This document shows positions 1 through 33,809 of a stretch of DNA of 64,000 bases, piece by piece (the first letter of the stretch is position 1; every line of letters starts with the position of its first letter). Made by a program: the position numbers and the translations under genes. Source of the DNA: a virus (Duplodnaviria; Caudoviricetes); IMG/VR virus record IMGVR_UViG_3300029288_007050, positions 1 to 64,000 of that record; one strand, written 5' to 3'. The notes under the pieces are model-generated. The model saw nothing but the letters and a program-made list of their open reading frames with translations. It did not search any database and had not been told where the DNA came from.

Positions 1-312
1 ATATATTTAGCAGGTCGAATGTCGACTGGTTTCGATAAAAAATATTTTGGAACTGATAAAATATTAGAATGGTATGTTGCTTGGAAAACTGCTAGACGTT
101 TATGGAAAGAAGGGCATGTAGTGTATTCACCTCATTTGAATAATATTTTTTTCAATAGCATAATGTCTCATTCAGAATGGGTCAAAAAAGGACTAAGTAT
201 GTTAGACGTCTGCGATGCTATTTATTTCTTGCCTAACTGGGAGAAAAGCAAAGGTTCGAAAATAGAATATGATTATGCTAAAAAGAAAAATAAAAAAATA
301 GTATTTATTTAG
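1..312 (+). CDS. DUF4406/DUF1937-like protein (nucleoside deoxyribosyltransferase-like fold), 5'-truncated by window edge
   Basis: Frame open from base 1 (IYLAGRM...); motifs VYSPH, MLDVCDAIYFLPNWEKSKGSKIEY. Confidence 0.75.
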   Translation: MYLAGRMSTGFDKKYFGTDKILEWYVAWKTARRLWKEGHVVYSPHLNNIFFNSIMSHSEWVKKGLSMLDVCDAIYFLPNWEKSKGSKIEYDYAKKKNKKIVFI

Positions 313-384
313 CCCTCATAACTCAATTGGCAGAGTAGCTGGCTTTTAACCAGTTTGTTCCAGGTTCGAGTCCTGGTGAGGGCA
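312..384 (+). tRNA. tRNA-Lys(UUU)
   Basis: Cloverleaf; anticodon loop CTTTTAA; T-arm CCAGG-TTCGAGT-CCTGG; acceptor GCCCTCA/TGAGGGC. Confidence 0.95.
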
Positions 385-407
385 CTTTATTTTTATTAAT
401 GAAATAA

Positions 408-548
408 ATGAAGACACTTAAAGAAGTACAAAAATCTGCTATAAAACAAGGACATTGTCATTGCAATTTTGCTGTCAAATGTCCATGCAATGAATTTAAG
501 AAAACTAAAAAATGCAAATGCTATTTAGCATTTTCTAAAAAGAAATAA
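408..548 (+). CDS. 46-aa Cys-rich protein (CHC/CPC/CKC), resembles minimal ferredoxin-thioredoxin reductase catalytic chain
   Basis: Translated by hand: MKTLKEVQKSAIKQGHCHCNFAVKCPCNEFKKTKKCKCYLAFSKKK. Confidence 0.55.
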   Translation: MKTLKEVQKSAIKQGHCHCNFAVKCPCNEFKKTKKCKCYLAFSKKK

Positions 549-550
549 AG

Positions 551-579
551 TTTACTCATTCTGAGAAATATGGTATAAT
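551..579 (+). promoter_or_regulatory. sigma70-type promoter
   Basis: TTTACT-N17-TATAAT with extended -10 TG. Confidence 0.85.
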
Positions 580-608
580 GGAATAATCAGAAGATCTTTG
601 ATAATTAT

Positions 609-681
609 CTCTTGGTAGCCAAGCAGCTAAGGCAGTGGTCTGCAAAACCAATATACGTGGGTGCAATTCCCACCCAAGAGT
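609..681 (+). tRNA. tRNA-Cys(GCA)
   Basis: Acceptor CTCTTGG/CCAAGAG, loop CTGCAAA, U73; T-loop variant TGCAATT. Confidence 0.9.
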
Positions 682-688
682 CAAGTAT

Positions 689-759
689 GCCCTTATAGTT
701 CAGTGGCAGAACGCCAATCTTGTAAATTGGATACTGGGGTTCGATTCCTCATTAGGGCT
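689..759 (+). tRNA. tRNA-Thr(UGU)
   Basis: Anticodon arm CCAAT-CTTGTAA-ATTGG; TTCGATT T-loop. Confidence 0.9.
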
Positions 760-769
760 CATATTAAAT

Positions 770-842
770 GGGCTTGTAGCTCAATCGGCAGAGCAACTCC
801 CTCTTAAGGAGAAGGTTGTGAGTTCGATTCTCACTAAGCCCA
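770..842 (+). tRNA. tRNA-Lys(CUU)
   Basis: Loop CTCTTAA; canonical D and T arms. Confidence 0.93.
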
Positions 843-851
843 CTCGAAATT

Positions 852-923
852 GGGGGATTGATGATAAAAGCAGCATACCGAGCTTGCACCTCGGAAGAAG
901 CGGCGCGATACCGCTATCCTCCA
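852..923 (+). tRNA. tRNA-Ala(UGC)
   Basis: CCGAG-CTTGCAC-CTCGG; G3:U70 identity pair; atypical T-loop CGCGATA. Confidence 0.85.
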
Positions 924-940
924 CAAATAGATTACCCCTA

Positions 941-969
941 TTTACAAAAACATTATAATATGGTATAAT
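941..969 (+). promoter_or_regulatory. sigma70-type promoter
   Basis: TTTACA-N17-TATAAT with extended -10 TG. Confidence 0.85.
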
Positions 970-994
970 AAATATAATAAAAACAACAAACGAT

Positions 995-1981
995 ATGAAA
1001 TTAGAAAATATAGGTTTTTATAGTTTGTCTGACCAGAGAGCTAAAACTGCTTCTGATAAATCACAGATGAAAAGATGTGAGTTAATCATCACTGAGTATT
1101 GCAACTTCAAATGTCCTTATTGTAGAGGTTTGGATAAGTACATATATGGAAATCGAAAAATAAAACAGTTGTCTTTATCAGAAATCAAAAAAGCTATCGA
1201 CTTTTGGTGCGAAAAAGAACCTTTAGAAAACATAAGATTTTCTGGTGGAGAACCTACTCTTCACAAAGACATTTTGGAAATTGTTTCGTACGCAAAAAAG
1301 AAAGGTATAAAAAGGATCGCTATCTCAACTAACGGTTCGAATAAAATTGAACTATACAGAAAATTAGTCAAAGCAGGTGTCAACGATTTTTCAGTCTCTT
1401 TAGATGCTTGTTGTGCAGAAGATGGCGACAAAATGTCTGGTGGAAGAATTGGTTCGTGGAACATTGTAATCAAAAATATCGAAGAAATATCAAAACTAAC
1501 GTACACGACAGTAGGCATAGTTTTGACTCCAGAAAATATCGACAAAACAATCGATACTATAAGATTAGCACATCGACTTGGTGTTTCAGACATTCGAATA
1601 ATTTCTGCAGCGCAGTATAATAAACCCATTCCAAGATTGAATGAAATAGAAACAGAAATAAGAAAAGCACACCCAATTTTAGATTATAGAATAAAGAATT
1701 TCGCGAATGGCAGAAATGTTCGGGGTATAAAAGAATCTGATTCTAAAAAATGCGGATTAGTATTAGACGATTCTGTCATTGCTGGAGATTATCATTTCCC
1801 ATGTGTTATTTATATGAGAGAGAAAGGACTAGCGATAGGTAAAGTGTCGAAAAATATGAGAAAAGAAAGAAAAGAATGGTATGAAAAACATGATTGCTTC
1901 AAAGATGATATATGTAGAAAAAACTGCTTAGACGTTTGTGTAGATTATAACAACAGACATGAAGAGTTCAATAAAAGATAA
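995..1981 (+). CDS. Radical SAM enzyme (MoaA/PqqE-like core, Cys-rich C-terminus)
   Basis: CNFKCPYC, FSGGEPTL, ISTNG, extra C-terminal Cys cluster. Confidence 0.9.
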   Translation: MKLENIGFYSLSDQRAKTASDKSQMKRCELIITEYCNFKCPYCRGLDKYIYGNRKIKQLSLSEIKKAIDFWCEKEPLENIRFSGGEPTLHKDILEIVSYAKKKGIKRIAISTNGSNKIELYRKLVKAGVNDFSVSLDACCAEDGDKMSGGRIGSWNIVIKNIEEISKLTYTTVGIVLTPENIDKTIDTIRLAHRLGVSDIRIISAAQYNKPIPRLNEIETEIRKAHPILDYRIKNFANGRNVRGIKESDSKKCGLVLDDSVIAGDYHFPCVIYMREKGLAIGKVSKNMRKERKEWYEKHDCFKDDICRKNCLDVCVDYNNRHEEFNKR

Positions 1982-2441
1982 AATTAAATTATTTTGGAGA
2001 AGCGCTGAAAAGAATAAAATAGAAGAACATGTTCTCGATGAAATTCTTTTCGAATATAGAGTGAGAATATATAAGAAGTTATCTAGTCACGGTCAGTTAT
2101 CTTTTGATTCTTACTTAAATAGTATAAAAAAATATTATCGTCTTAATAAGCTAAAAGAGTTTCGGTATGAGGGTAAACATTCTCATATCAAAGAAGACAT
2201 TGATGATGTTTTGAAAAACTTATTCTTTAAAAGATATTTACTTTTTAAGAAGCTTTTCTCAAAAAACGAAAAATACAAAAAGCTTAAAAAAGTCTATAAA
2301 AAACTATGCAAGACTGATATGTCTCATTCTGAAAAAGTGTTATTAGTAGACGCATGTATTCATATAGAACATAATAGCGGCAATATTTTCAACATCAATA
2401 TAGAAAAGTTAAGAAAAGAATATGAAAAGAGTCAATGTTAA
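1959..2441 (+). CDS. hypothetical protein
   Basis: ORF overlapping both neighbours in operon fashion. Confidence 0.6.
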   Translation: MKSSIKDKIKLFWRSAEKNKIEEHVLDEILFEYRVRIYKKLSSHGQLSFDSYLNSIKKYYRLNKLKEFRYEGKHSHIKEDIDDVLKNLFFKRYLLFKKLFSKNEKYKKLKKVYKKLCKTDMSHSEKVLLVDACIHIEHNSGNIFNINIEKLRKEYEKSQC

Positions 2442-2838
2442 AGAATTAGAATATTTAGCATTTCACGACATAATGACTGGGTTGAGGAACAGAAGCTATT
2501 TGTATAGAAAGACAAATCTTTCTGACTATAATTTTGTTTATTTTATTGATATTAATGACATGCACGAGATAAACAAATCGGGGCACTTCTTTGGTGATAA
2601 ACATATTCTAAAATGTGTAAAATACATTTCTTCTTTCTTAGATAAAAAAGACTTATTTGTAAGATATGCTGGTGATGAATTCGTTATACTTTCAGAAACT
2701 GATATAGATTTAAAAACTAATAAAGATTTTTCTGTTGGCAAGACGAAAAAGACTTCGAACGACATATTGAAAGAAATCGAAAAAGCAGATAGAGAAATGT
2801 TAAAATCTAAAACTGAATACAAGCGTACAAAAACATAG
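2422..2838 (+). CDS. stand-alone GGDEF (diguanylate cyclase-like) domain protein
   Basis: HDIMTGLRNR, FIDIND, GHFFGD, RYAGDEF. Confidence 0.85.
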   Translation: MKRVNVKELEYLAFHDIMTGLRNRSYLYRKTNLSDYNFVYFIDINDMHEINKSGHFFGDKHILKCVKYISSFLDKKDLFVRYAGDEFVILSETDIDLKTNKDFSVGKTKKTSNDILKEIEKADREMLKSKTEYKRTKT

Positions 2839-2840
2839 GA

Positions 2841-2869
2841 TTTACAAAGATAGCAAAGTATGGTATAAT
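2841..2869 (+). promoter_or_regulatory. sigma70-type promoter
   Basis: TTTACA-N17-TATAAT. Confidence 0.85.
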
Positions 2870-2906
2870 AATATTGGTTCTTTATTAAAACATAGGGAGG
2901 GTCGAA

Positions 2907-3254
2907 ATGAACAACGTCGTAAGAATGTATGAAAGACAGAAAGCATATCTAGTCGATTTGTTGGGAACAGAAAACTTTGAACATATTCGGTCAGTTTTAA
3001 ACGAAAAATACTTATTGCGTCTTCACGGTGAAGCCACAGAAGTGTTTGATGCTGCTAAACTAAAAGAATCAGATCCGATTCTCACTCCAGAAGAAAACGA
3101 ACATCTGTTGGAAGAAATCATCGACTGTTTCAAGTACGTGATGAATTTGTTCATAGTTAACGGATTCACTGCAGAGGATATTGTCAGGAAATTCGAGGAA
3201 AAATCAGATATTGTCGACGAAAGGTTAAGACAAAAGAAAGAAAGGAGTGCTTGA
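2907..3254 (+). CDS. all-alpha NTP pyrophosphohydrolase (MazG/dimeric dUTPase-like)
   Basis: EATE...EEIIDCFKY; paralogous to N-terminus of the 17116 gene; has a GGAGG SD. Confidence 0.7.
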   Translation: MNNVVRMYERQKAYLVDLLGTENFEHIRSVLNEKYLLRLHGEATEVFDAAKLKESDPILTPEENEHLLEEIIDCFKYVMNLFIVNGFTAEDIVRKFEEKSDIVDERLRQKKERSA

Positions 3255-3280
3255 AGATGTTTAAGTACTCCTTTTTCTTC
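3241..3280 (+). terminator. intrinsic terminator hairpin
   Basis: AAAGGAGTGCTTGAA-GATG-TTTAAGTACTCCTTT then T-rich tract. Confidence 0.7.
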
Positions 3281-3324
3281 AAATATTGAAATCGTATCAA
3301 AATGATACGAATACAAACACAAAT

Positions 3325-3723
3325 ATGATGAAATACGAAATAAAAGACGACAATTTAATAGTGACAATACCTCTAAAACAAACTGCTCGAGACTATTACG
3401 ACCAGGTCTGCGGAAAAATTGACAATATCATCGGAGTGATTTCGAAAGACCAGTTTGGTAATGAAGAGATTGGTTTTCATCAACTTATCGATATGACGTA
3501 TAAAGGTAAAGAATCACAGATCGATGGATTGTTAGTTCCTTATTATGGAGAAAAAGAAGACTTTATCAAACTTTGCAAAGAACTTGGCATTAGTTATTAT
3601 GAGTATCCGACTTGCGTATATTGTGGTAAAAGTATATATGGATCGTTTTCAGATGGAGACAAAGGACCACGTTGCTATGATTGTGAGAAAAAAGCAGAAA
3701 AAGGCATCGAAAAATATAAATAA
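3325..3723 (+). CDS. hypothetical protein with C-terminal CxxC..CxxC Zn finger
   Basis: CVYC...CYDC; ATG 3325 preferred to TTG 3286. Confidence 0.65.
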   Translation: MMKYEIKDDNLIVTIPLKQTARDYYDQVCGKIDNIIGVISKDQFGNEEIGFHQLIDMTYKGKESQIDGLLVPYYGEKEDFIKLCKELGISYYEYPTCVYCGKSIYGSFSDGDKGPRCYDCEKKAEKGIEKYK

Positions 3724-3846
3724 TAACTGAGATGATGGAATATACCTTTTTAATGGTAAACGAGGCTTAGAACGCATTCTAGAGGGCAAGATAAACGCTA
3801 ATACTTGTTTATCCACGGTGGTACAGTCAATTTAATAGACTTTAAA

Positions 3847-4086
3847 ATGAATTTCGGTAATAGTGTAAAAATAAAATATGCTAAGACAAGCAATCAATAC
3901 AAGATGGATTGTAGAGAGCAATGGTTGCATAATGTGACAGAAATTCGCTATCGTTATCCCTCTCCACAATCTACTCTTAGAGTTTCTTTTGAGAGTGACA
4001 TTCATAAAACTGGTCTTACTGTATTTCTAGACGAAATAGAAGAATTTGAAACAATATTAGCAACAGAAATAGCTCCAGAATTTTAA
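3847..4086 (+). CDS. hypothetical protein
   Basis: ORF; start uncertain. Confidence 0.5.
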   Translation: MNFGNSVKIKYAKTSNQYKMDCREQWLHNVTEIRYRYPSPQSTLRVSFESDIHKTGLTVFLDEIEEFETILATEIAPEF

Positions 4087-4111
4087 TAACGTGTATGAAC
4101 AAAACGAATAA

Positions 4112-4182
4112 TGCAGAGTCATCTAATGGTAGGATAGATGGTTTTGAGCCATCTTATCTAGGTCCGAATCCTAGCTCTGCAG
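4112..4182 (+). tRNA. tRNA-Gln(UUG)
   Basis: GATGG-TTTTGAG-CCATC; acceptor TGCAGAG/CTCTGCA. Confidence 0.9.
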
Positions 4183-4200
4183 CATTTATGTCGAATTTAT

Positions 4201-4272
4201 TGGAGAGTGGCGTAACGGTAGCGCAGCTCGCTGTTAACGAGAAGGTTGCAGGTCCGAATCCTGCCTCTCCAG
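4201..4272 (+). tRNA. tRNA-Asn(GUU)
   Basis: CTCG-CTGTTAA-CGAG; acceptor TGGAGAG/CTCTCCA. Confidence 0.9.
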
Positions 4273-4273
4273 C

Positions 4274-4345
4274 TGCGGAGTAGTATAATTGGTAGTACGG
4301 CGGACTCTGAATCCGTAGATCTAAGTTCGAACCTTAGCTCCGCAG
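4274..4345 (+). tRNA. tRNA-Gln(CUG)
   Basis: GCGGA-CTCTGAA-TCCGT; acceptor TGCGGAG/CTCCGCA. Confidence 0.9.
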
Positions 4346-4355
4346 CACGACCATA

Positions 4356-4384
4356 TTTACATAATACGTAAAATATGATAAGAT
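4356..4384 (+). promoter_or_regulatory. sigma70-type promoter (variant)
   Basis: TTTACA-N17-TAAGAT with TG. Confidence 0.6.
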
Positions 4385-4397
4385 ATATTAGAATAAT

Positions 4398-4934
4398 ATG
4401 AAGACAGAAAAGAAAAATAAAAAATGGGAAGTTAAGTTTGCTCCAGAATTTTTCAAAAGTGCTGAAAAGCTTTTTTCAAACAATCCCAAATATTCAATAC
4501 CAAGAATGCTGAGTGACGCAAAATACGAAATCAAGTGGGCTTTGCAAAGAGCATTCAGAGGTTATGACGATCGATTAACTTGGGATTTCCACTTTTTTAT
4601 ATCGAAATATTTTCCGGTGATCATCAGAAAAATGATAAAAAATGTTCACGGTTATCCATGTTCTATGAACAGAAAGAATAAAGGTGATTTCAAAAACGTA
4701 AAAGACTGGAAGAGAACATTAGAAAAGATTGCTAAAGGATTTGAAGCTGCAAGAGATATTGACAACGATAAATATATGAAAAGAATAAAACTAAAAAAAC
4801 CAAGAAAAGATGTCTTCGGTGAAGATTCTTATATTGATTATAAATTTGACAAAAAATATTACGATCGTCTTATGAAAGAGTTTCATGAAGGCGTAGACTT
4901 ATTTAAGAAGTATTTCTTTAATTTGTGGGATTAA
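4398..4934 (+). CDS. hypothetical phage protein
   Basis: 178-aa ORF directly after a promoter. Confidence 0.7.
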   Translation: MKTEKKNKKWEVKFAPEFFKSAEKLFSNNPKYSIPRMLSDAKYEIKWALQRAFRGYDDRLTWDFHFFISKYFPVIIRKMIKNVHGYPCSMNRKNKGDFKNVKDWKRTLEKIAKGFEAARDIDNDKYMKRIKLKKPRKDVFGEDSYIDYKFDKKYYDRLMKEFHEGVDLFKKYFFNLWD

Positions 4935-4997
4935 TTTTTACAAAATATATGGCAATCTAAATCCAACTAAAATTAAAACGGATTTAGCATTGTCAAT

Positions 4998-5219
4998 ATG
5001 AAACAACATATAATGGTTCGTAATGGAGTCGTTTTAGAATCTTTGCTCAGTGCTCAGTTCAAAATACAGTTAGAAGACGGAAAAGAAATCAGAGCGTATT
5101 TATCAGGCAAGATGAGAATGAATCATATCAGAGTTCTCCCTGGTGACAAAGTAATCGTCGAATTAAGAGATGACATGAGCATAGCAAATCAGATAGGTAG
5201 GATAACTAGAAGAAATTAA
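4998..5219 (+). CDS. infA: translation initiation factor IF-1
   Basis: GVVLESL..AQFKIQLEDG..IRAYLSGKMRMNHIRVLPGDKV. Confidence 0.93.
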   Translation: MKQHIMVRNGVVLESLLSAQFKIQLEDGKEIRAYLSGKMRMNHIRVLPGDKVIVELRDDMSIANQIGRITRRN

Positions 5220-5302
5220 GAGTAAATGTTCTTTTAAAATTGAAGTCAATCATACGCGTGGGTATGAAGTCCTCCAGAGGGAGGCATTGAAAACCTAAAA
5301 GT

Positions 5303-6103
5303 ATGACAAAAAGAAATTACGAAATGGAAGTGCTCATTAATGGTAATCCCGTTAAAGAGTATCTTTCAAACGGTAAAATATTCGTCGAAGGAAGAAAAGG
5401 TTCTGTATTTTCTCTCAGACTAAGAAACAATTCTTCAGAAAGGGTTTTATTCGTACCGACTGTAGATGGTTTATCAGTTATGGATGGCAAAGAAGGATCG
5501 TTTGATTCTCGAGGATACATCGTGAATGGTTATGATTCTATAACGATAGATGGTTGGAGATTAAGCAATCGAGAAGTAGCAGAATTTTATTTTTCTTCTC
5601 CAGAAGATTCTTACAGAAAACGCAAAGGAATGGGAAACAATCTTGGAAGTATCGCTGTCGCTGTCTTTAGAGAAAAAGAAAAGAAATGTCTGCATTGGTT
5701 GCAAGAAACATTACCTTTTCCTGAATGGCCGAAATACGTGCCCGACGAGACATATCCTAAACGATACCCAGACCCGAATAAGTATTTCTGTGGACAACAA
5801 CCGTTTGACTCAAATGAAAAAGATGGAAGAATCGAACTCTCAGCAATGAATTGTTCTCAATGTTTTTCTATGAGATCAGTTTCGCAAGAAATAGGAACTG
5901 GTTTCGGTGATTCGAAAAGAAGTGAAGTAATAACTATTTCGTTTGATAGAGAAAACGAACCAGATGCAGTCCTCGAAATATTCTACAACAGTCGAAAACA
6001 ACTCGAAAAAATCGGGATCGAGTTCAACAGACCAGCATTAAGAGTTTCAGAGCCAAATTCATTTCCAGCTGAAAGAGGCTACTGTGAACGACCCAATAGA
6101 TAA
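5303..6103 (+). CDS. hypothetical protein, flanked by complementary arms
   Basis: 266-aa ORF; arms at 5225-5263 and 6111-6148. Confidence 0.75.
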   Translation: MTKRNYEMEVLINGNPVKEYLSNGKIFVEGRKGSVFSLRLRNNSSERVLFVPTVDGLSVMDGKEGSFDSRGYIVNGYDSITIDGWRLSNREVAEFYFSSPEDSYRKRKGMGNNLGSIAVAVFREKEKKCLHWLQETLPFPEWPKYVPDETYPKRYPDPNKYFCGQQPFDSNEKDGRIELSAMNCSQCFSMRSVSQEIGTGFGDSKRSEVITISFDRENEPDAVLEIFYNSRKQLEKIGIEFNRPALRVSEPNSFPAERGYCERPNR

Positions 6104-6160
6104 TAATTAAGCATCTACGCGAGTTGACTTCAATTTTTAGAGAACATTAACATAATATAA

Positions 6161-6234
6161 GGGCGCGTAGCTCAGTCGGTCAGAGCACGGCTCTTATAAA
6201 GCCGGGGTCGATGGTTCGAGTCCATCCGCGCCCA
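6161..6234 (+). tRNA. tRNA-Ile(UAU)
   Basis: CGGCT-CTTATAA-AGCCG; canonical cloverleaf. Confidence 0.92.
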
Positions 6235-6293
6235 CTGAACATAGCTCAATGGCTAGAGCAAATATTATATGAGTTCGATTCTCATTGTTCAAC
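6235..6293 (+). ncRNA. tRNA-like RNA lacking the anticodon arm
   Basis: Acceptor TGAACA/TGTTCA, D arm GCTC-AATGGCTA-GAGC, T arm ATGAG-TTCGATT-CTCAT; only 9 nt between D and T arms. Confidence 0.7.
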
Positions 6294-6328
6294 AAGTAGA
6301 GTTCTTTCGAGTCTGGATATGTCATGTT

Positions 6329-6625
6329 ATGCCAACAAAAAATGTTTACGCTCGTCATATTGACGGCGAATGTCATGGTCCGTCATGTCCTGTTTGTGCG
6401 TGGTTAGACAGCACGAATATGGTATGGAAACAGTTAGTTGGAAAAGTTCTAACACAAATAGATGCAAGTTTTCCAGAAGGATCGCAAAAAGACGCGATAA
6501 AAGATATACTTCGAAACACGATCTGGAATATGCATGAAGAAGCGACGAAATCGTTTTTCACTCATGCACATTCACCAGAAGATAAAAGGTCATTACACCA
6601 AGTCTTAAGAGAATTGCCAGATTAG
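6329..6625 (+). CDS. hypothetical protein, flanked by complementary arms
   Basis: ATG 6329 avoids overlap with the tRNA-like RNA. Confidence 0.65.
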   Translation: MPTKNVYARHIDGECHGPSCPVCAWLDSTNMVWKQLVGKVLTQIDASFPEGSQKDAIKDILRNTIWNMHEEATKSFFTHAHSPEDKRSLHQVLRELPD

Positions 6626-6665
6626 TATTAACTATTTCTAGGCGAAGATCGGACTCTACTAATAT

Positions 6666-6738
6666 GGTGGTCGTGGGGTAGCGGTTAGCCCAATGGTTTG
6701 TGAAACCATCAGCATGAGTTCGAATCTCATCGATCACC
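6666..6738 (+). tRNA. tRNA-His(GUG) with genome-encoded G-1
   Basis: ATGGT-TTGTGAA-ACCAT; G-1:C73. Confidence 0.92.
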
Positions 6739-6742
6739 CCTA

Positions 6743-6771
6743 TTTACAAATGTTTCTAGATGTGGTATAAT
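6743..6771 (+). promoter_or_regulatory. sigma70-type promoter
   Basis: TTTACA-N17-TATAAT. Confidence 0.85.
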
Positions 6772-6827
6772 ATATAATGTTGAAATAAGATAATTAGACT
6801 TTGAAAAAGACAAATAAACACATCTAT

Positions 6828-6940
6828 TATGAACAAATCACTGATTTCTAAACTTTATTATAAAATTAAAAACAGTAGGCTTGAGAAACTTCGGTTTCTC
6901 ACGGGATCAGTGACCCGTGTTCATAGCCTACTGTTTTTAG
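6828..6940 (+). ncRNA. structured leader RNA (cloverleaf with alternative pairing; C4-antisense-like architecture)
   Basis: 14-bp closing stem, cUUCGg hairpin, second hairpin loop complementary to upstream sequence. Confidence 0.65.
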
Positions 6941-6959
6941 TCTTTTAATAAACATCATT

Positions 6960-7505
6960 ATGAAAAAACAAGACGTTGCGAAAATATTAATAGAATTGTA
7001 TGATGAATATTTAGAAAATACTGTCGTTGAAAGAACTCAAGAATTCAATGATTTAGAAAAAGGCGGAAAGCAAAAATTATTGCTTAAAGGCAATCTAGAT
7101 GGTTTTATTGTCTATCTTCAAAATAAGGAAAAGATCGAAAAATCAGTCAAAATAAAAAAACAGTCTGAAAAACAAGATGTTCTAGAACTTAAAAAGGAAG
7201 AAGCACAAAAAATACAAACTATTTATGAAGCGTACGTCGGAAAGATTTTACCAGGTTCTAGATTGACTGCGACTGCGAAAGCAAAAATATCTACTAGATT
7301 AAAAGAGTTTTCTATTGAAGAAATATTGCAAGGAATTGATAACTTTTCAAAAGACAGTTGGTGGATGGAAAACAATGCAAAAAGAGGCATTACTTGGTTC
7401 TTCTATTCTGAAGACAGAACTGAACAATTTAAAAATTTGACACCAAGACAAAAAAATACTAAAGAGAAATTAAGAAAAGGTTCTTTCGAAGAAGAACCAT
7501 TTTAA
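6960..7505 (+). CDS. putative replication initiator/replisome-organiser-like protein
   Basis: C-terminal RLT...KISTRLKEFSIEEILQGIDNF...WW...TWFF resembles phage replication-protein C-domains. Confidence 0.5.
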   Translation: MKKQDVAKILIELYDEYLENTVVERTQEFNDLEKGGKQKLLLKGNLDGFIVYLQNKEKIEKSVKIKKQSEKQDVLELKKEEAQKIQTIYEAYVGKILPGSRLTATAKAKISTRLKEFSIEEILQGIDNFSKDSWWMENNAKRGITWFFYSEDRTEQFKNLTPRQKNTKEKLRKGSFEEEPF

Positions 7506-7510
7506 ACAAC

Positions 7511-7858
7511 ATGATCTCATTAAAACTTATCAAAAGATTAAAGAAAGTAGGATTTCCAGAAAAATATTGTAAGCATTTCTACATCACAGATAAGAAAGGC
7601 AAAAACATAGGCATTCCTTCTCTTGAGGAACTCATCAAAGCATGCGGTAAAGATTTCGAAAGTCTGGTACTGGTGTCAGACATACAAAATAAAAAAAGAG
7701 TATATTGGTGGCAGGCGTATATGACAGAAAAAGCATTTGATAAATTAGGTATTCCATGCGTAAGAGATTGTTGTGGATACGATGCTGCGGATGAACCAGA
7801 TGAAGCAGTAGCAGAACTTTATATATCATTAAATAAAAAACCAACATGTGGAAAATAA
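7511..7858 (+). CDS. hypothetical protein
   Basis: ORF in operon. Confidence 0.65.
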   Translation: MISLKLIKRLKKVGFPEKYCKHFYITDKKGKNIGIPSLEELIKACGKDFESLVLVSDIQNKKRVYWWQAYMTEKAFDKLGIPCVRDCCGYDAADEPDEAVAELYISLNKKPTCGK

Positions 7859-8160
7859 TCACAATGATAGTCGCAGCTTTTTTGCTCTTTCCCGTTTTTG
7901 TCGAATTGAAAGAATCATATAAAAAATGGGCAAAGAACAAAATAACAAAGGTCGAAAAGAAAAACATAAAAATTAAATCCGACAAGGCGTTTACTCTAAT
8001 TGAACTTTTGGTCGTTTTAGCTATTACTGGTATTCTGTTATCGGTTCTATTTACCGCTATGAAAGAAAAAGGAAACGATACGACATCTTGCTATGACCAG
8101 AAGACAGAGTGTTTGTTAAAATGCTCTAATCAATATGATGAATGTCGCGTCAAAGAATAA
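7846..8160 (+). CDS. type IV pilin-like protein (prepilin cleavage/methylation motif)
   Basis: KAFTLIELLVVLAITGILLSVL. Confidence 0.7.
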   Translation: MWKIITMIVAAFLLFPVFVELKESYKKWAKNKITKVEKKNIKIKSDKAFTLIELLVVLAITGILLSVLFTAMKEKGNDTTSCYDQKTECLLKCSNQYDECRVKE

Positions 8161-8164
8161 AAAC

Positions 8165-8989
8165 ATGTCATACATAAGCAAAGAAGGCAATCTTAGAGTT
8201 GGTAAAATCATTGGTCATGTAGCATTAGCAATCTTAGCTTTGATTCTTATCTTCGGTTCTTTTGGAACGATTGGCGCTGGTGAAAAAGGTGTTTTGCTTC
8301 AATTCGGAGCAGTCCAAGAAAAAGTATTCGACGAAGGTTTGTTTTTCAAAGTACCGTTTGTGCAGAAAGTTAGACATTTAGATGTGAAAATTCAGAAAGA
8401 ACAAGTTGAAGTTTCAGCTGCTTCTAAAGATTTGCAGACAGTTAGTTCAGTTATAGCTCTTAATTATCACTTGGACGAAAACAAGGTAGCAGAACTATGG
8501 CAGAAAGTAGGAAAGAACTACAAGGCAAGAATCATTGACCCAGCTATACAAGAAGCGTTGAAAGCAAGCACTGCGAAATATACTGCAGAAGAGCTGATTA
8601 CAAAGAGACCAGAAGTTAGAGACGATGCTAAAGCTATTTTGTCAGAAAGACTAGCAAAAGAATTTATAATTGTTGATGAATTGTCTATTGTAAACTTTGA
8701 CTTTTCGTCTTCATTCAACAGTGCGATCGAAGCAAAAGTGACAGCAGAGCAGAATGCTTTAGCAGCTAAGAACAAACTAGAACAAGTCAAATTCGAAGCA
8801 GAACAGAGAATATCTCAAGCAAAAGGTGAAGCTGAAGCTATTAGAATTCAAGCAGAAGCTATTACTCAACAAGGCGGAAAAGACTATGTTAATCTGAAAT
8901 GGATAGAGGCATGGGGAAGCGGAAAGGCTCCAGTGCCTCAAACGATAATCGGTGAAGGCGGTGGAAATTTCTTGTTCAACATAAAATAG
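8165..8989 (+). CDS. SPFH/prohibitin (band 7) membrane protein
   Basis: TM helix, GEKGVL..FG, SKDLQTV, AIEAKV.AEQ coiled coil. Confidence 0.92.
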   Translation: MSYISKEGNLRVGKIIGHVALAILALILIFGSFGTIGAGEKGVLLQFGAVQEKVFDEGLFFKVPFVQKVRHLDVKIQKEQVEVSAASKDLQTVSSVIALNYHLDENKVAELWQKVGKNYKARIIDPAIQEALKASTAKYTAEELITKRPEVRDDAKAILSERLAKEFIIVDELSIVNFDFSSSFNSAIEAKVTAEQNALAAKNKLEQVKFEAEQRISQAKGEAEAIRIQAEAITQQGGKDYVNLKWIEAWGSGKAPVPQTIIGEGGGNFLFNIK

Positions 8990-9179
8990 AAAGAATAGCG
9001 TTTTACGGTATCGCTTGAAGAACCGTAAATAAGTATGAGAATACTAAAAGACTCTGATAGTAGAGAAGACATCATTTTTAGTTCTGATGAACATTATTCA
9101 GACAAGACAGAAAAAACAAGAGATCCTGGAGAATATCTTGGAGTTTTTGGTATATTAAAACTAATAAAAGAAATATTAG

Positions 9180-9389
9180 ATGGAGAAGACGTCTAAACTA
9201 AAAATGAAAACAGAAAAACGAAGCAAATATTGGTATACTATGGTAGACATTCTCGATGGCCAGTTTCCGAAAAACAAATGCAAGGAAAGAGGAAGAGCTT
9301 TAGTCATGCTTGCATATATCGAAATGTTGTTGAAAGGTTTCAAATTTGACGAAAATGGCTACCCTATCCGAAAAAATACAAGCGTTTAA
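9180..9389 (+). CDS. hypothetical protein
   Basis: short ORF. Confidence 0.5.
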   Translation: MEKTSKLKMKTEKRSKYWYTMVDILDGQFPKNKCKERGRALVMLAYIEMLLKGFKFDENGYPIRKNTSV

Positions 9390-9402
9390 GAAGTTTTTTG
9401 GG

Positions 9403-9472
9403 GGGGGGCAATGCCAAGGCGGCGAATGGGACTCCAAATCCTGTTGGGAAGGTTCGATTCCTTCGTCCCCCG
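9403..9472 (+). tRNA. tRNA-Trp(CCA)
   Basis: TGGGA-CTCCAAA-TCCTG; T arm GAAGG-TTCGATT-CCTTC; short D loop. Confidence 0.85.
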
Positions 9473-9793
9473 CTTAAAAAAAATAAACTTATGAGAAAAA
9501 TAATACATAAAGGTTTGTTAAAAACGTTAACGTGGTTTATTTTAGGTATGCTCTTTGGTTTTTTCTTAGCGTTTAGCAATTTAGCAGTGACGTGCGTTAA
9601 AAAACTATGACAGCAATTATGCAATACGAAGCAAAATGTCAAAAATGCAAAAAAACGTTTAAGACGTTTGGGATAGACAAAAACTTTACTATTATTAAAA
9701 AGTTTCAATGTTTTTCATTCTGTCCGAAATGTTCGAAAAAATTAGAAAAAATGGTCGAAGAATGGCTCAAAAAATAATTAACTAAACATTTGC

Positions 9794-10000
9794 ATGAAAG
9801 AATTCATTCAAACGATTATAATCATAATGTTAGTATTTTTTGTTATAGTGTTCATTGCTTCATTGATTGGCAAAGCTGTCGTCTATACTGATCAAGAAAA
9901 AGCTAGAAAATTAGAGTATTGTATTAGTCAGAATCAAAGTTTTCAAGACTGCTTTATAATGATACACAGAGGATATGACTTTGACAAAATCTCAAAATAA
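9794..10000 (+). CDS. small membrane protein
   Basis: N-terminal hydrophobic helix. Confidence 0.55.
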   Translation: MKEFIQTIIIIMLVFFVIVFIASLIGKAVVYTDQEKARKLEYCISQNQSFQDCFIMIHRGYDFDKISK

Positions 10001-10424
10001 AAAAATGAAAATAAAGTATTGCGAAAAATGTGTTCAAATGACTAATCATATCGGCGACAAATGTCTGAAATGCAATAGTTCTAATTCTAAACAAGAATCT
10101 GATCCAGGTCCATGTTATCGTTGTCACCAGTGGCCGTGCAAATGCAAAGAAGGACCATTGATGGAGAAACCATCAGACAAAGATAAAAGCATAAGAGAAG
10201 AAATAATAGAAATAATCGAACAATTCTATTATCGGTGTAGTCCGACTTGTATAGGATGCGAAGTAGAATTAGATATGATGGCGTCTTCGATTATTTCTCT
10301 TTATGATGAAAGACTACAAAAACTTATAGTCGATGAAATTTTGATCGCTAGAAAAGAAGGCTTCCCGACTTCTCGTCTCACAAGTTTATTTATGAAAGTT
10401 AAACAATTAAAAGAAGACAAATGA
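9975..10424 (+). CDS. Cys-rich hypothetical protein
   Basis: multiple CxxC; stop overlaps primase ATG. Confidence 0.55.
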   Translation: MTLTKSQNKKMKIKYCEKCVQMTNHIGDKCLKCNSSNSKQESDPGPCYRCHQWPCKCKEGPLMEKPSDKDKSIREEIIEIIEQFYYRCSPTCIGCEVELDMMASSIISLYDERLQKLIVDEILIARKEGFPTSRLTSLFMKVKQLKEDK

Positions 10425-12190
10425 ACCTCGCATTAGATTATCTATCTAAAACTGGTTGGGAATACAAAGAAGTTGCAAATAAGCAATATTCTGTTAAAGT
10501 CTGTCCTCTTTGTGGAGATGAACGCTGGAAATTCTATATGTCTTATGATGGTTTATGGGATTGCAAAATATGCGCTGAATCTGGTAATTTATATCAATTG
10601 AAAGGCAAACTTGGCGGTATCGATGAAATCTCAAGCATTGATTCTCTTTTTCGAGATAAGAGAGAATTAGACATTAAAATTTTGGATGAATATGTCAACA
10701 GTCTGAAAAATGATAAAAATGCTTACGAATATTTGACGAAAATAAGAGGTTTCACTCCAGAGACGATCGAAAAATTCAAACTTGGTGTTGATGGTAATTG
10801 GATCGTTATACCTCATTTTCAAAACGAGAAATTGTGGAATTTGAAAATGAGAAATTATAAAGAAAAAGACTTTCGTCGAGTATCTGGACAACCTTCAGTT
10901 CTTTTTAATATTGACAATATAGATTTAAAGAAAAAAGCATTAGTCATTGTCGAGAGTGAGACTGATTGTATAGCTGCTTCACAAATGGGAATCAAAAACG
11001 TTGTTGGTTTAACTACAGGTGCAGGTACGTTTTTACCAGAATGGATACCATTTACTCTCAAGTTTAAAGAAATTTATATCTGTTTAAATTCAGACACGGC
11101 TGGCCAAAAAGGTGCTTATAGTATGGCTGAAAAACTTGGTTTGGAAAAATGTAGAAACGTCATTCTCCCAGTAAAAGATGTTAACGACTACATGCAAGAA
11201 CATACGGGCGATGATTTTTATAAATTAGTAAAGAATGCTAAAAGATTCAATATCAAAAATATCAAAGACGTCGCTGAGTATATAAGAGATTTAGACGAAT
11301 GGCTTGATAGTGGCGAAGCTTTGAATGGTTTAGAATTGCCTTTTCCAAAAATAAACAAATATCTGAGTGGATTCAAAGAAGAAGATATGATAATCATTTC
11401 TGGAGACACAGGTGTCGGTAAAACAACAATATGTTTCAACATCGTTGACAAGTTTCTTAAAAATGGCAAACGGTGTCTTGTTTTTCTTTTAGAAGGAAAA
11501 ATAAAATATCATCTTTTAAGAATGATGTCTGCTGAAACGCATGTCAAAACTGCAGATATTCAAAAAGATAAAACAATTGTACCAGATTGGGAAGAAGTAA
11601 AGAAAAGATTTTCTGATTATCCATTGTATTTTTATTCTGGAACACAAAGTGACATGGATCCGAAAAAGCTTGCAGAACTATTGATGGCAGCTGTAAAACT
11701 CTATGACATAGATTTTGTGATGATAGATAATCTCCAAAAATTCGTAAAAGGTGATTTCGATTTAGTCGTTCAAGAAACTAGTAGAACAGTATCAGCAATA
11801 AAAGATTTAGCAGTCGATCTAAAAATTCCAATAATGTTAATCACCCATATCAGAAAACCAGTCAAGGGTGCTAATCGTGTCACAATGCATGATGCTAAAT
11901 CGAGTTCAACTATATATCAAGACGCAGACATCTATTTAACTTTATGGAACAACAAAACAGATAATCAGGAAGGTGATGACATGGTGTTGTCTATTGAGAA
12001 AAATAGAATGGGAGAAGGTGGCATCGACATACGCATGACCTATGAAAAGGAAATTGGTGAGTATCATGAACGTGCAGGTGATGCAGAAAAAGTAGTCAAA
12101 AGAAAGAAAATAGATAAAAACGTTACTTGGGAAGAAAAAGGTTTTGATGACAATGAAAAAGAAAAGGACGATGGTTTTAAGAAAATATAA
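10421..12190 (+). CDS. DNA primase-helicase (T7 gp4/Twinkle-like: Zn finger-TOPRIM-DnaB-like)
   Basis: CPLC..CKIC; VESETD/NSDTAG TOPRIM; Walker A GDTGVGKT; IEKNR. Confidence 0.93.
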   Translation: MNLALDYLSKTGWEYKEVANKQYSVKVCPLCGDERWKFYMSYDGLWDCKICAESGNLYQLKGKLGGIDEISSIDSLFRDKRELDIKILDEYVNSLKNDKNAYEYLTKIRGFTPETIEKFKLGVDGNWIVIPHFQNEKLWNLKMRNYKEKDFRRVSGQPSVLFNIDNIDLKKKALVIVESETDCIAASQMGIKNVVGLTTGAGTFLPEWIPFTLKFKEIYICLNSDTAGQKGAYSMAEKLGLEKCRNVILPVKDVNDYMQEHTGDDFYKLVKNAKRFNIKNIKDVAEYIRDLDEWLDSGEALNGLELPFPKINKYLSGFKEEDMIIISGDTGVGKTTICFNIVDKFLKNGKRCLVFLLEGKIKYHLLRMMSAETHVKTADIQKDKTIVPDWEEVKKRFSDYPLYFYSGTQSDMDPKKLAELLMAAVKLYDIDFVMIDNLQKFVKGDFDLVVQETSRTVSAIKDLAVDLKIPIMLITHIRKPVKGANRVTMHDAKSSSTIYQDADIYLTLWNNKTDNQEGDDMVLSIEKNRMGEGGIDIRMTYEKEIGEYHERAGDAEKVVKRKKIDKNVTWEEKGFDDNEKEKDDGFKKI

Positions 12191-32594: not shown

Positions 32595-33809
32595 ATGAAA
32601 AAAGTAATATCAACAGAAAAAATACCGATCAAATTATGGTTAGACGATATTGAAGAAGGCGCTTTGCAACAAGCTAGAAATCTTGCTAATTTGCCTTTCG
32701 GTTTCAAATGGATTTCTATAATGCCTGATTCTCATCAGGGTTTCGGTATGCCGATAGGTGGTGTTATGGCTACAAAAGGAATAGTAGTACCAAACGCTGT
32801 CGGTGTTGATATTGGGTGTGGTATGTGCGCAGTCAAAACGTCTTTGACAGAAATCGACCAAGAAAAACTTAAGAAAATAATGGGAAGAATCCGGAAAGAA
32901 ATTCCAGTCGGTTTCAGTCATCACAAATCAAAACAGAATGAAGATCTAATGCCAAAATTTCCAAGTGAATCTAAACCAGACTGGGACGTTAATTTAATGC
33001 CAGTATGTGTAAGTGAATACGAAAACGCTTTAAAACAGATTGGAACTCTTGGAGGAGGAAATCATTTCATTGAAATTCAAAAAGGAAGTGATGGTCACAT
33101 CTGGTTAATGATACATAGCGGTTCTAGAAACTTTGGTTTAAAGATTGCTAAACACTACAACGATTTAGCAATAGAATTAAACAAAAAATGGCACACTCAA
33201 GTTCCGCATGAATGGAAATTGGCATTCTTGCCGATGGATTCGAAAGAAGGATACACCTATTTGAGAGAAATGCAATACGCTGTTGATTTTGCTTTAGCTA
33301 ATAGAAAACTGATGATGGATAGAATACAAAACATCGTAAACGACGTCTGCTGGTTAAATTTAGACAACGTTCTTCCTGACAAATCACCTTTAGTCATAGA
33401 CGAAATGATAAATATTGCTCATAATTATGCTAAGATGGAAAACCATTTCGGAGAAAACGTCTTAGTCCATAGAAAAGGAGCTACGTTAGCTACAGAAAAA
33501 ACAATAGGTATAATTCCAGGTTCGATGGGTACTTCAAGTTATATCGTCCAAGGTTTGGGAAATCCAGATTCGTTTAATTCTTGTTCACACGGAGCTGGTA
33601 GAAAAATGAGTAGAAAAAAAGCTATCTCTGATCTTAATTTAGAAGAAGAACAGAAAAAAATGACAGGTATTTTGGGAGCACCAAGAAATAAAGACGAGTT
33701 AGAAGAAGCACCAGGTGCTTATAAAGATATAGACGTCGTCATGGAAAATCAGAAAGATCTTGTTAAGATTTTAGTTGAGCTTAGACCATTAGCTGTTATC
33801 AAAGGTTAG
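32595..33809 (+). CDS. rtcB: RtcB RNA 2',3'-cyclic phosphate/5'-OH ligase
   Basis: MPDSHQG, VGVDIGCG, GTLGGGNHFIE, HSGSR, HN, HRKGA, PGSMG, SHGAGR. Confidence 0.95.
   Translation: MKKVISTEKIPIKLWLDDIEEGALQQARNLANLPFGFKWISIMPDSHQGFGMPIGGVMATKGIVVPNAVGVDIGCGMCAVKTSLTEIDQEKLKKIMGRIRKEIPVGFSHHKSKQNEDLMPKFPSESKPDWDVNLMPVCVSEYENALKQIGTLGGGNHFIEIQKGSDGHIWLMIHSGSRNFGLKIAKHYNDLAIELNKKWHTQVPHEWKLAFLPMDSKEGYTYLREMQYAVDFALANRKLMMDRIQNIVNDVCWLNLDNVLPDKSPLVIDEMINIAHNYAKMENHFGENVLVHRKGATLATEKTIGIIPGSMGTSSYIVQGLGNPDSFNSCSHGAGRKMSRKKAISDLNLEEEQKKMTGILGAPRNKDELEEAPGAYKDIDVVMENQKDLVKILVELRPLAVIKG

Follow-up and report, generated by a model that had tools for sequence, protein, structure and literature searches.

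A stretch of 64,000 nucleotides (the window; positions 1 to 64,000 of the IMG/VR virus record IMGVR_UViG_3300029288_007050, Duplodnaviria; Caudoviricetes) carries a tRNA cluster in which two genes are each enclosed by a long-range RNA helix. The complete record comprises 129,156 bp with 34% G+C, and the window is its first 64 kb. It is classed as a provirus in IMG/VR, and its completeness was estimated by CheckV at 83%. Besides 11 tRNAs and an IF-1 homologue the record encodes a family B DNA polymerase, a primase-helicase, a tape measure protein, GroEL, RtcB, and a Ro-like RNA-binding protein. From 5' to 3' the locus consists of the IF-1 gene, a 5' arm, the open reading frame (ORF) ORF1, a 3' arm, tRNA-Ile, a tRNA-like element, a second 5' arm, ORF2, a second 3' arm, and tRNA-His. 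The two pairs of arms (panhandles 1 and 2) and what they enclose, including a motif in the 5' untranslated region (UTR) of ORF1, are the following:

5222..5263, + strand: 5' arm (leader strand) of panhandle 1, seen by inverted-repeat search, folding, RNAduplex, and comparison with random windows
5228..5239, + strand: boxA-like motif GTTCTTTTAAAA, outer part of the panhandle 1 5' arm, with one mismatch to GYTCTTTAANA
5264..5302, + strand: conserved 5'-UTR motif (GGUAUGAAGUCC, hairpin, GGCAUUGAAAACCUA) between arm and start codon, without Rfam match
5303..6103, + strand: ORF1, 266 aa, DUF7918-like, function unassigned, with 230 homologues at E <= 0.001 and a weak PF25534 match
6112..6152, + strand: 3' arm (trailer strand) of panhandle 1, beginning 10 nt past the ORF1 stop codon (RNAduplex)
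6295..6322, + strand: 5' arm of panhandle 2, with GTTCTTT at 6301-6307 (folding, RNAduplex, random windows)
6329..6625, + strand: ORF2, 98 aa (ORF list, homologue search)
6633..6660, + strand: 3' arm of panhandle 2 (folding, RNAduplex, random windows)

For panhandle 1 an inverted-repeat search returned a core of 28 nt that is 89% complementary (5222-5249 / 6124-6151). According to RNAduplex the pairing extends over 5222-5263 / 6112-6152 and amounts to 36 bp, four G-U pairs included. It is interrupted by an internal loop, beyond which an inner helix of 9 bp is formed (5254-5262 / 6112-6120). The helix is present in both the minimum free energy (MFE) and the centroid fold of the region 5215-6160 (z = -4.0). 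To assess chance pairing, the 5' arm was set against random partner windows drawn from its own genome. The pairing energy of panhandle 1 is -43.0 kcal/mol, compared with -11.5 +/- 3.3 kcal/mol for the random windows, and one window in 3000 was as good. Panhandle 2 has an outer helix of 10 bp (AGUAGAGUUC / GGACUCUACU), and its outer and inner segments together comprise 22 bp with four G-U pairs (6295-6322 / 6633-6660). The same helix is present when the whole unit is folded, in MFE and centroid structures alike. Its energy is -27.1 kcal/mol against -10.0 +/- 3.0 kcal/mol for random partner windows, with none of 3000 as good; for the entire 60-nt flanks the corresponding values were -32.4 and -13.9 +/- 4.4 kcal/mol, with none of 1500 as good.

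A sequence-only reading of the window had proposed arms at 5225-5263 and 6111-6148 around the reading frame 5303-6103, and arms at 6296-6317 and 6637-6659 around the reading frame 6329-6625. For both panhandles these coordinates and the pairing proved correct and beyond chance, and folding of the whole units recovered both helices.

The pairing around ORF1 could be followed in related loci, namely 23 on viral contigs, two in assemblies, and two close ones in genome bins (designated L004 and so on). When the viral contigs were scanned for ORF1 a single-protein query gave nothing and an alignment-based query succeeded; with a single-protein query the scan for ORF2 gave nothing. Bracketed homologues of ORF1, with 42-75% protein identity, are present in L004-L007, L008 (weakly), L009, L011, L013-L016, L018, L019, L029, and L030, and at least 14 other phage contigs carry the bracket. 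Their continuous helix comprises 23-27 bp and the 3' arm usually starts 7-13 nt past the stop codon. Within a locus the 5' arm pairs with the 3' flank at -29 to -42 kcal/mol, compared with about -17 kcal/mol, the means ranging from -13 to -19 kcal/mol, for the flanks of unrelated loci. The own flank ranked first in 10 of 13 loci; in L004 and L016 it was outranked by a close relative only. Of the exceptions in this comparison L008 is weak (-19.6 kcal/mol), and L027, which has no bracket, is the sole outright failure. A reference phage collection contained no close relative and gave matches to tRNAs only. Groundwater and landfill metagenomes hold near-identical DNA, the contigs matching the locus being strain variants together with an indel like that of L004.

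A table of pairs at each helix position was computed in Python for 19 units, the numbering beginning with the G of GTTCTTT. Pairing at positions 11-22 is present in 15-19 of the 19 units, with three to five Watson-Crick pair types at each position. At position 12, for example, U-A was found seven times, C-G seven times, and A-U four times. Between the window and L030 a compensatory change from U-A to C-G is seen (TTGAAGTCAA/TTGACTTCAA vs TTGAAGCCAA/TTGGCTTCAA). Thus, both the own-versus-other energies and the pair types at positions 11-22 revealed, for panhandle 1, the compensatory changes in related phages that had been named as a check on the pairing.

The pairing is also better on the sense strand. 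Panhandle 1 reaches -43.0 kcal/mol in sense and -32.5 kcal/mol in antisense orientation, panhandle 2 -27.1 and -13.4 kcal/mol, and in both cases the four G-U pairs of the sense strand have no counterpart on the antisense strand. Of 14 orthologous loci, 13 fold better in sense than in antisense orientation, with a mean advantage of about 7 kcal/mol, and the same bias is seen in all six oriented boxA-type units of this genome, including three on the minus strand (96.7-97.9 kb). The earlier view that G-U mismatches on the + strand reflect RNA pairing therefore held, the sense energies being stronger and the bias following the orientation of the gene. Covariation in the orthologues and the G-U bias of the sense strand together argue for selection on sense-strand RNA pairing, and we are highly confident that the panhandle is a sense-strand RNA helix under selection.

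These data also bear on an explanation at the DNA level, namely that the arms are the terminal inverted repeats of a cassette that moves, or that they form hairpins or cruciforms in single-stranded DNA. In agreement with it, the block of tRNA-Ile, tRNA-like element, and panhandle 2 is missing in L004 (75% protein identity, syntenic) and in one landfill contig, and the homology with some relatives restarts exactly at 5228. In L004 and the landfill contig the region 6149-6713 is replaced (L004 4406-4450) and the 5' half of tRNA-His is divergent. The edges of this indel, however, differ from the arms; two tRNA-type genes lie within it and it extends into tRNA-His, and it looks like ordinary phage mosaicism. 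No transposase, no evident target-site duplication at the flanks, and no transposon-like ends were seen, which agrees with the earlier judgement that the arms are not transposon ends. Moreover, unlike transposon ends, the arm sequences vary between copies beyond the boxA core and yet stay complementary. G-U mismatches occur on the sense strand only, with a bias that flips with gene orientation. We therefore regard a DNA-level feature as very improbable. Some 5' arms contain TTGACA or TTGAAG and could be taken for a sigma-70 -35 box; as the main role of the arm this was rejected, since the arm must lie within the RNA to account for covariation and G-U bias.

The heptamer GTTCTTT is located at 5228-5234 and at 6301-6307. 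A boxA consensus of GYTCTTTAANA has been derived from functional E. coli sites by Baniulyte et al. (PMC5725501). In every 5' arm the first 11-12 nt are close to GTTCTTTGAAAA; the motifs of the orthologues read GTTCTTTAAAAA, GTTCTTTGAAAA, and GTTCTTTAACAA, with GTTCTTTGAAAA in L030. The consensus is matched exactly in L004 (GTTCTTTAAAA) and L016 (GTTCTTTAACA) and with one mismatch in the window and in motifs of the GTTCTTTGAAAA type. GTTCTTT marks the outer end of the helix in all 19 units. The 5' strand is near-constant over helix positions 0-10 (G-U-U-C-U-U-U-R-A-A/C-A), and its partner on the 3' strand is either C or U, or either A or G: at position 0, G-C was found ten times and G-U nine times, at position 5, U-A eight times and U-G nine times. 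Constant nucleotides on the 5' side with wobbling partners on the 3' side show that the boxA sequence itself is under selection in addition to the pairing, and that the 3' strand need do no more than preserve the pairing.

In panhandle 1 and its orthologues the boxA-like motif lies 58-97 nt ahead of the start codon, and the 5' arm of the window ends 40 nt short of it. The gap is filled by the motif at 5264-5302, whose consensus is GGYA-(A/U)GAAGUCC, a hairpin, and GCA-UUGAAGUCCUA near the AUG. The stem of the hairpin covaries (CCUCC/GGAGG, CUUCG/CGAAG, CGCA/UGCG, CCUGGCG/CGCCAGG). This motif was found ahead of the phage-type homologues of ORF1 (L004-L020, L029, L030) and ahead of none of the cellular homologues, and we consider it a candidate for a new cis-regulatory leader. 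ORF1 itself had no match in NCBIfam, PHROGs, or PDB sequences. DUF7918-like proteins are common in phage tRNA clusters, with a tRNA directly upstream in L010, L016, and L030. Distant homologues occur in genomes of Proteobacteria and Myxococcota, and the few inspected by eye seem to have a hydrophobic N-terminal extension.

These distances are relevant to the possibility that pairing between 5' and 3' UTR controls translation or triggers decay, as in icaR (PMC3868564). The inner helix of panhandle 2 (6313-6322) is situated 7-16 nt ahead of the ORF2 start codon, a position that would suit such a control. The start region of ORF1, in contrast, is left unmasked, since boxA and arm are distant and a separate 5'-UTR motif occupies the space between. 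An icaR-like control thus appears improbable.

A genome-wide scan brought the number of units in the whole genome to about 20, about 16 of them beyond the window. Further boxA-type stalks occur at three places: at 96.7-97.9 kb around two minus-strand ORFs and one non-coding insert, at 108.6 kb around a small unit, and at 110.0 kb around another non-coding insert. A second class of stalk lacks boxA and forms an uninterrupted array of 11-12 gene-enclosing units between 99801 and 106883 (99.8-107 kb). The core of these stalks, UUCUGGAACU/AGUUUCAAAA, keeps a fixed C-A mismatch, and covariation is seen in the outer arms. The 5' arms consist of a variable part followed by (U/A)UCUGGAACU, the 3' arms of AGUUUCAAA(A/U) and, after it, the complement of the variable part; U-A covaries to A-U at the first core pair. 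In 8 of 11 units the + strand is favoured. In relatives, one further unit adjoins the DUF7918 unit.

The array bears on what we consider the main rival explanation, in which the helices are processing or stability stalks only, without a Nus role, for RNase III or another double-strand-specific nuclease. The conserved GTTCTTTGAAA / UUUYARAGAAY end would then be the site that this enzyme recognises or cleaves, and its likeness to boxA a coincidence. With 23-36 bp the helices have a length suitable for RNase III, the array stalks with their different core UUCUGGAACU/AGUUUCAAAA are equally good without boxA, and boxA is paired in the final structure. On the other hand, the sequence is kept on the 5' strand only and the 3' strand drifts via G-U pairs, which argues for a reader of the single-stranded 5' arm and not for a reader of the duplex. 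In addition, several loci match the boxA consensus over 11-12 nt. Stalks of this simple kind are a possible, though rather unlikely, explanation.

The surroundings of the two units contain the following features:

4356..4384, + strand: promoter-like site TTTACA-17-TAAGAT with TG, directly past tRNA-Gln (promoter scan)
4998..5219, + strand: IF-1 homologue (PF01176, E = 3e-17), its stop codon 3 nt ahead of the 5' arm
6161..6235, + strand: tRNA-Ile (UAU) (tRNA search)
6236..6291, + strand: tRNA-like element with acceptor, D, and T arms and no anticodon arm (MFE and centroid folds)
6667..6740, + strand: tRNA-His (GUG), 6 nt past the 3' arm of panhandle 2
6743..6771, + strand: strong promoter-like site TTTACA-17-TGgTATAAT, 11/12 matches, extended -10, conserved in L004
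6854..6952, + strand: structured non-coding element closed by a 28-nt arm pair, just ahead of the ORF at 6960, conserved in L004

The bases of the helices lie flush with the neighbouring tRNA-type genes. Panhandle 1 extends to 6152, with tRNA-Ile beginning at 6161; panhandle 2 begins at 6295, behind the end of the tRNA-like element at 6291, and extends to 6660, ahead of tRNA-His at 6667. The tRNA-like element, which directly adjoins both tRNA-Ile and the 5' arm of panhandle 2, has a 6-bp acceptor stem, a T loop of UUCGAUU, and a linker of 9-11 nt in place of the anticodon arm. It was called neither by ARAGORN nor by Rfam, and Rfam reported only tRNAs over positions 1-12000. RNase P or RNase Z may use it as a processing signal. 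The element at 6854-6952 contains two inner hairpins, one with a UUCG loop, and shows a change from A-U to G-U in L004; it shares the stem AAACAGUAGG/CCUACUGUUU with the non-coding element at 110014-110136.

The site at 4356..4384 is likely to be the start of a transcript containing ORF178, IF-1, panhandle 1, the tRNAs, and panhandle 2, and the site at 6743..6771 would launch the next transcription unit. No terminator-like site was present on the + strand between 4000 and 7200, which together with the promoter-like sites fits a single precursor RNA with ORF178, IF-1, both panhandles, and the tRNAs. Immediately ahead of the 5' arm of L029 there is a promoter-like site as well.

In summary of these observations, the helices exist, are selected as sense-strand RNA, carry a motif of the boxA consensus, and adjoin tRNAs. 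Each unit would be designed with the ORF in the loop of the helix, a 5' strand composed of boxA and 12-16 variable nt, and the complement starting about 10 nt past the stop codon. As the best reading we propose a leader–trailer helix in the style of rRNA with a built-in boxA, flush against tRNAs; for the full model with Nus factors and RNase III we see an about even chance. In rrn operons boxA recruits NusB-S10, and the antitermination complex tethers the leader at the exit channel while the rRNA loops out; the leader strand is then handed to the trailer ('delivery' model), the helix is formed, and RNase III cuts (PMC10250234, PMC8632103). By analogy, the boxA stalk of the phage units probably recruits host Nus factors, followed by cutting by RNase III or by protection of the ends. 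Nus binding, RNase III cleavage, and stabilisation are the steps that we infer.

The course of events could be as follows. A single RNA including the tRNAs would be transcribed from the promoter near 4356. The emerging, still single-stranded boxA would be bound by host NusB-S10, with GUUCUUUUAAAA and GUUCUUUGAAAA as candidate target sequences. The polymerase would be rendered resistant to termination over the largely untranslated, tRNA-rich stretch, and the 5' arm would be tethered at the RNA exit channel. The pairing partner of boxA is transcribed 0.3-0.9 kb later, and the promoter-like sites are located upstream. Once the 3' arm has been made, the arms would anneal as in the rrn 'delivery' model, which would close the unit and, since boxA belongs to the helix strand, bury the motif. 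RNase P and RNase Z would then release the tRNAs, and because the bases of the helices are 3-8 nt from the tRNA ends these cuts would leave the ends of the mRNA in duplex. Host RNase III would either cut the stalk of 23-36 bp or leave it. The outcome would be a monocistronic mRNA with both ends in duplex and shielded from exonucleases.

Several points weigh against this proposal. The motif is dispensable for the bracket design in itself, because the larger array has stalks without boxA. The agreement of panhandle 2 with boxA is restricted to GTTCTTT (7 nt), so that the earlier statement of a boxA-like GTTCTTT in both 5' arms stands with a near-full consensus match for panhandle 1 and with seven bases only for panhandle 2. 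As ORF2 has no relatives (its homologue search returned nothing except the identical sequence itself), panhandle 2 is without comparative support. The heptamer is common in this genome (99 copies vs about 53 expected), and hence its placement is informative and the bare heptamer is not. In E. coli and in one Patescibacteria rRNA operon boxA is located upstream of the leader–trailer helix and not within it, and in the finished phage fold boxA is base-paired. Finally, no RNase III, NusB, or dsRBD family member was found in the phage record, a weak negative given its 83% completeness, and for this reason host enzymes are assumed.

The Patescibacteria operon belongs to the metagenome-assembled genome (MAG) in which L030 lies, with a bracketed homologue that is 57% identical. 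Its 16S rRNA is preceded by a boxA-like GTTATTTGAAAACTT at -60 and enclosed by a leader–trailer helix of 29 bp, and in the rRNA spacer AGTTCTTTTTTGG is situated ahead of a tRNA. In this MAG nusB and rnc are neighbouring genes (G001:C1:163782-164641 and L109). As a tentative extension, which we put forward with some doubt, a widespread group of uncultivated groundwater and landfill phages, possibly infecting Patescibacteria, would package single genes as pseudo-rRNA units in which boxA serves first as loading site for the host Nus/rrn antitermination-chaperone complex and then as a strand of the stalk. If true, each gene would silence its own antitermination signal and leave as an mRNA with clamped ends; in this way the machinery that transcribes and processes rRNA would serve mRNAs gene by gene and reset itself.

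Paired ends could alternatively be substrates of phage RNA ligases, yielding circular or end-sealed mRNAs. The phage does encode RtcB (32595-33809), and a panhandle brings the RNA ends together. RNase III and RNase P, however, leave a 5'-phosphate and a 3'-OH, and RtcB joins ends of another chemistry. Given this mismatch, and with circularisation lacking specific support, we hold this fate of the mRNAs to be highly unlikely.

Leader–trailer helices and boxA are seen as tools of ribosome production, and few targets of Nus factors are known beyond rRNA (suhB, lambdoid nut sites). That boxA occurs within gene-enclosing stalks, maintained with covariation in many phages, suggests a reuse by phages of the entire logic of rRNA transcription and processing for mRNAs. 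The units provide a testable model for the co-transcriptional formation of long-range RNA helices and explain a possible release and stabilisation of mRNAs within phage tRNA clusters. They also provide compact portable elements for gene insulation in synthetic operons and a practical signal for annotating where units begin and end in phage dark matter.

In a limited literature search we did not find gene-enclosing boxA stalks described in phages; known systems share parts of the design. The closest are the leader–trailer helices of pre-16S and pre-23S rRNA, in which complementary flanks likewise form a helix of at least 25 bp that is supported by covariation and has boxA on the 5' side, tRNAs adjoin the stalks in one transcript, and the helix length suits RNase III. 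For the E. coli leader–trailer helix more than 17 bp are needed (PMC10250234); the panhandles have 36 and 22 bp and the orthologues 23-27 bp, and covariation of the helix is seen for panhandle 1 only. In contrast to the pre-rRNA stalks, the phage loop is a protein-coding ORF of 0.3-0.8 kb with no rRNA enclosed, boxA is the outer strand of the helix instead of an upstream single-stranded element, and no boxB or boxC was recognised. With the nut sites of lambda (boxA and boxB) the units share a phage transcript whose boxA would recruit host NusB-S10, but there is no adjacent boxB hairpin, no N-like protein was identified, and boxA pairs with a distant 3' partner.

The RNase III sites between the early genes of T7 resemble the proposed scheme in that a polycistronic phage RNA is converted to monocistronic mRNAs with duplex ends that are thought to be stabilising. 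The T7 sites are local hairpins between genes, whereas here a long-range helix is formed from the gene's own flanks, with arms 0.3-0.9 kb apart. In Staphylococcus aureus the 3' UTR of icaR pairs with the 5' UTR, so that the ribosome-binding region is masked and a site for RNase III arises (PMC3868564). The likeness to the proposed scheme is that 5'-3' UTR pairing in a bacterial mRNA yields a substrate of RNase III; the icaR pairing, however, masks the Shine-Dalgarno region and represses translation, whereas the start of panhandle 1 is free and its 5' strand is a boxA motif. Such masking was not seen in panhandle 1, and the inner helix of panhandle 2 comes within 7 nt of the start. As in the tRNA punctuation of mitochondria, mRNAs would be freed by excision of flanking tRNAs or tRNA-like elements, with the difference that the ends of the phage mRNAs would additionally be clamped in duplex. 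In the proposed reading the feature combines known kinds, leader–trailer helices, boxA sites, and RNase III processing of phage RNA, and its arrangement is conserved across many uncultivated phages.

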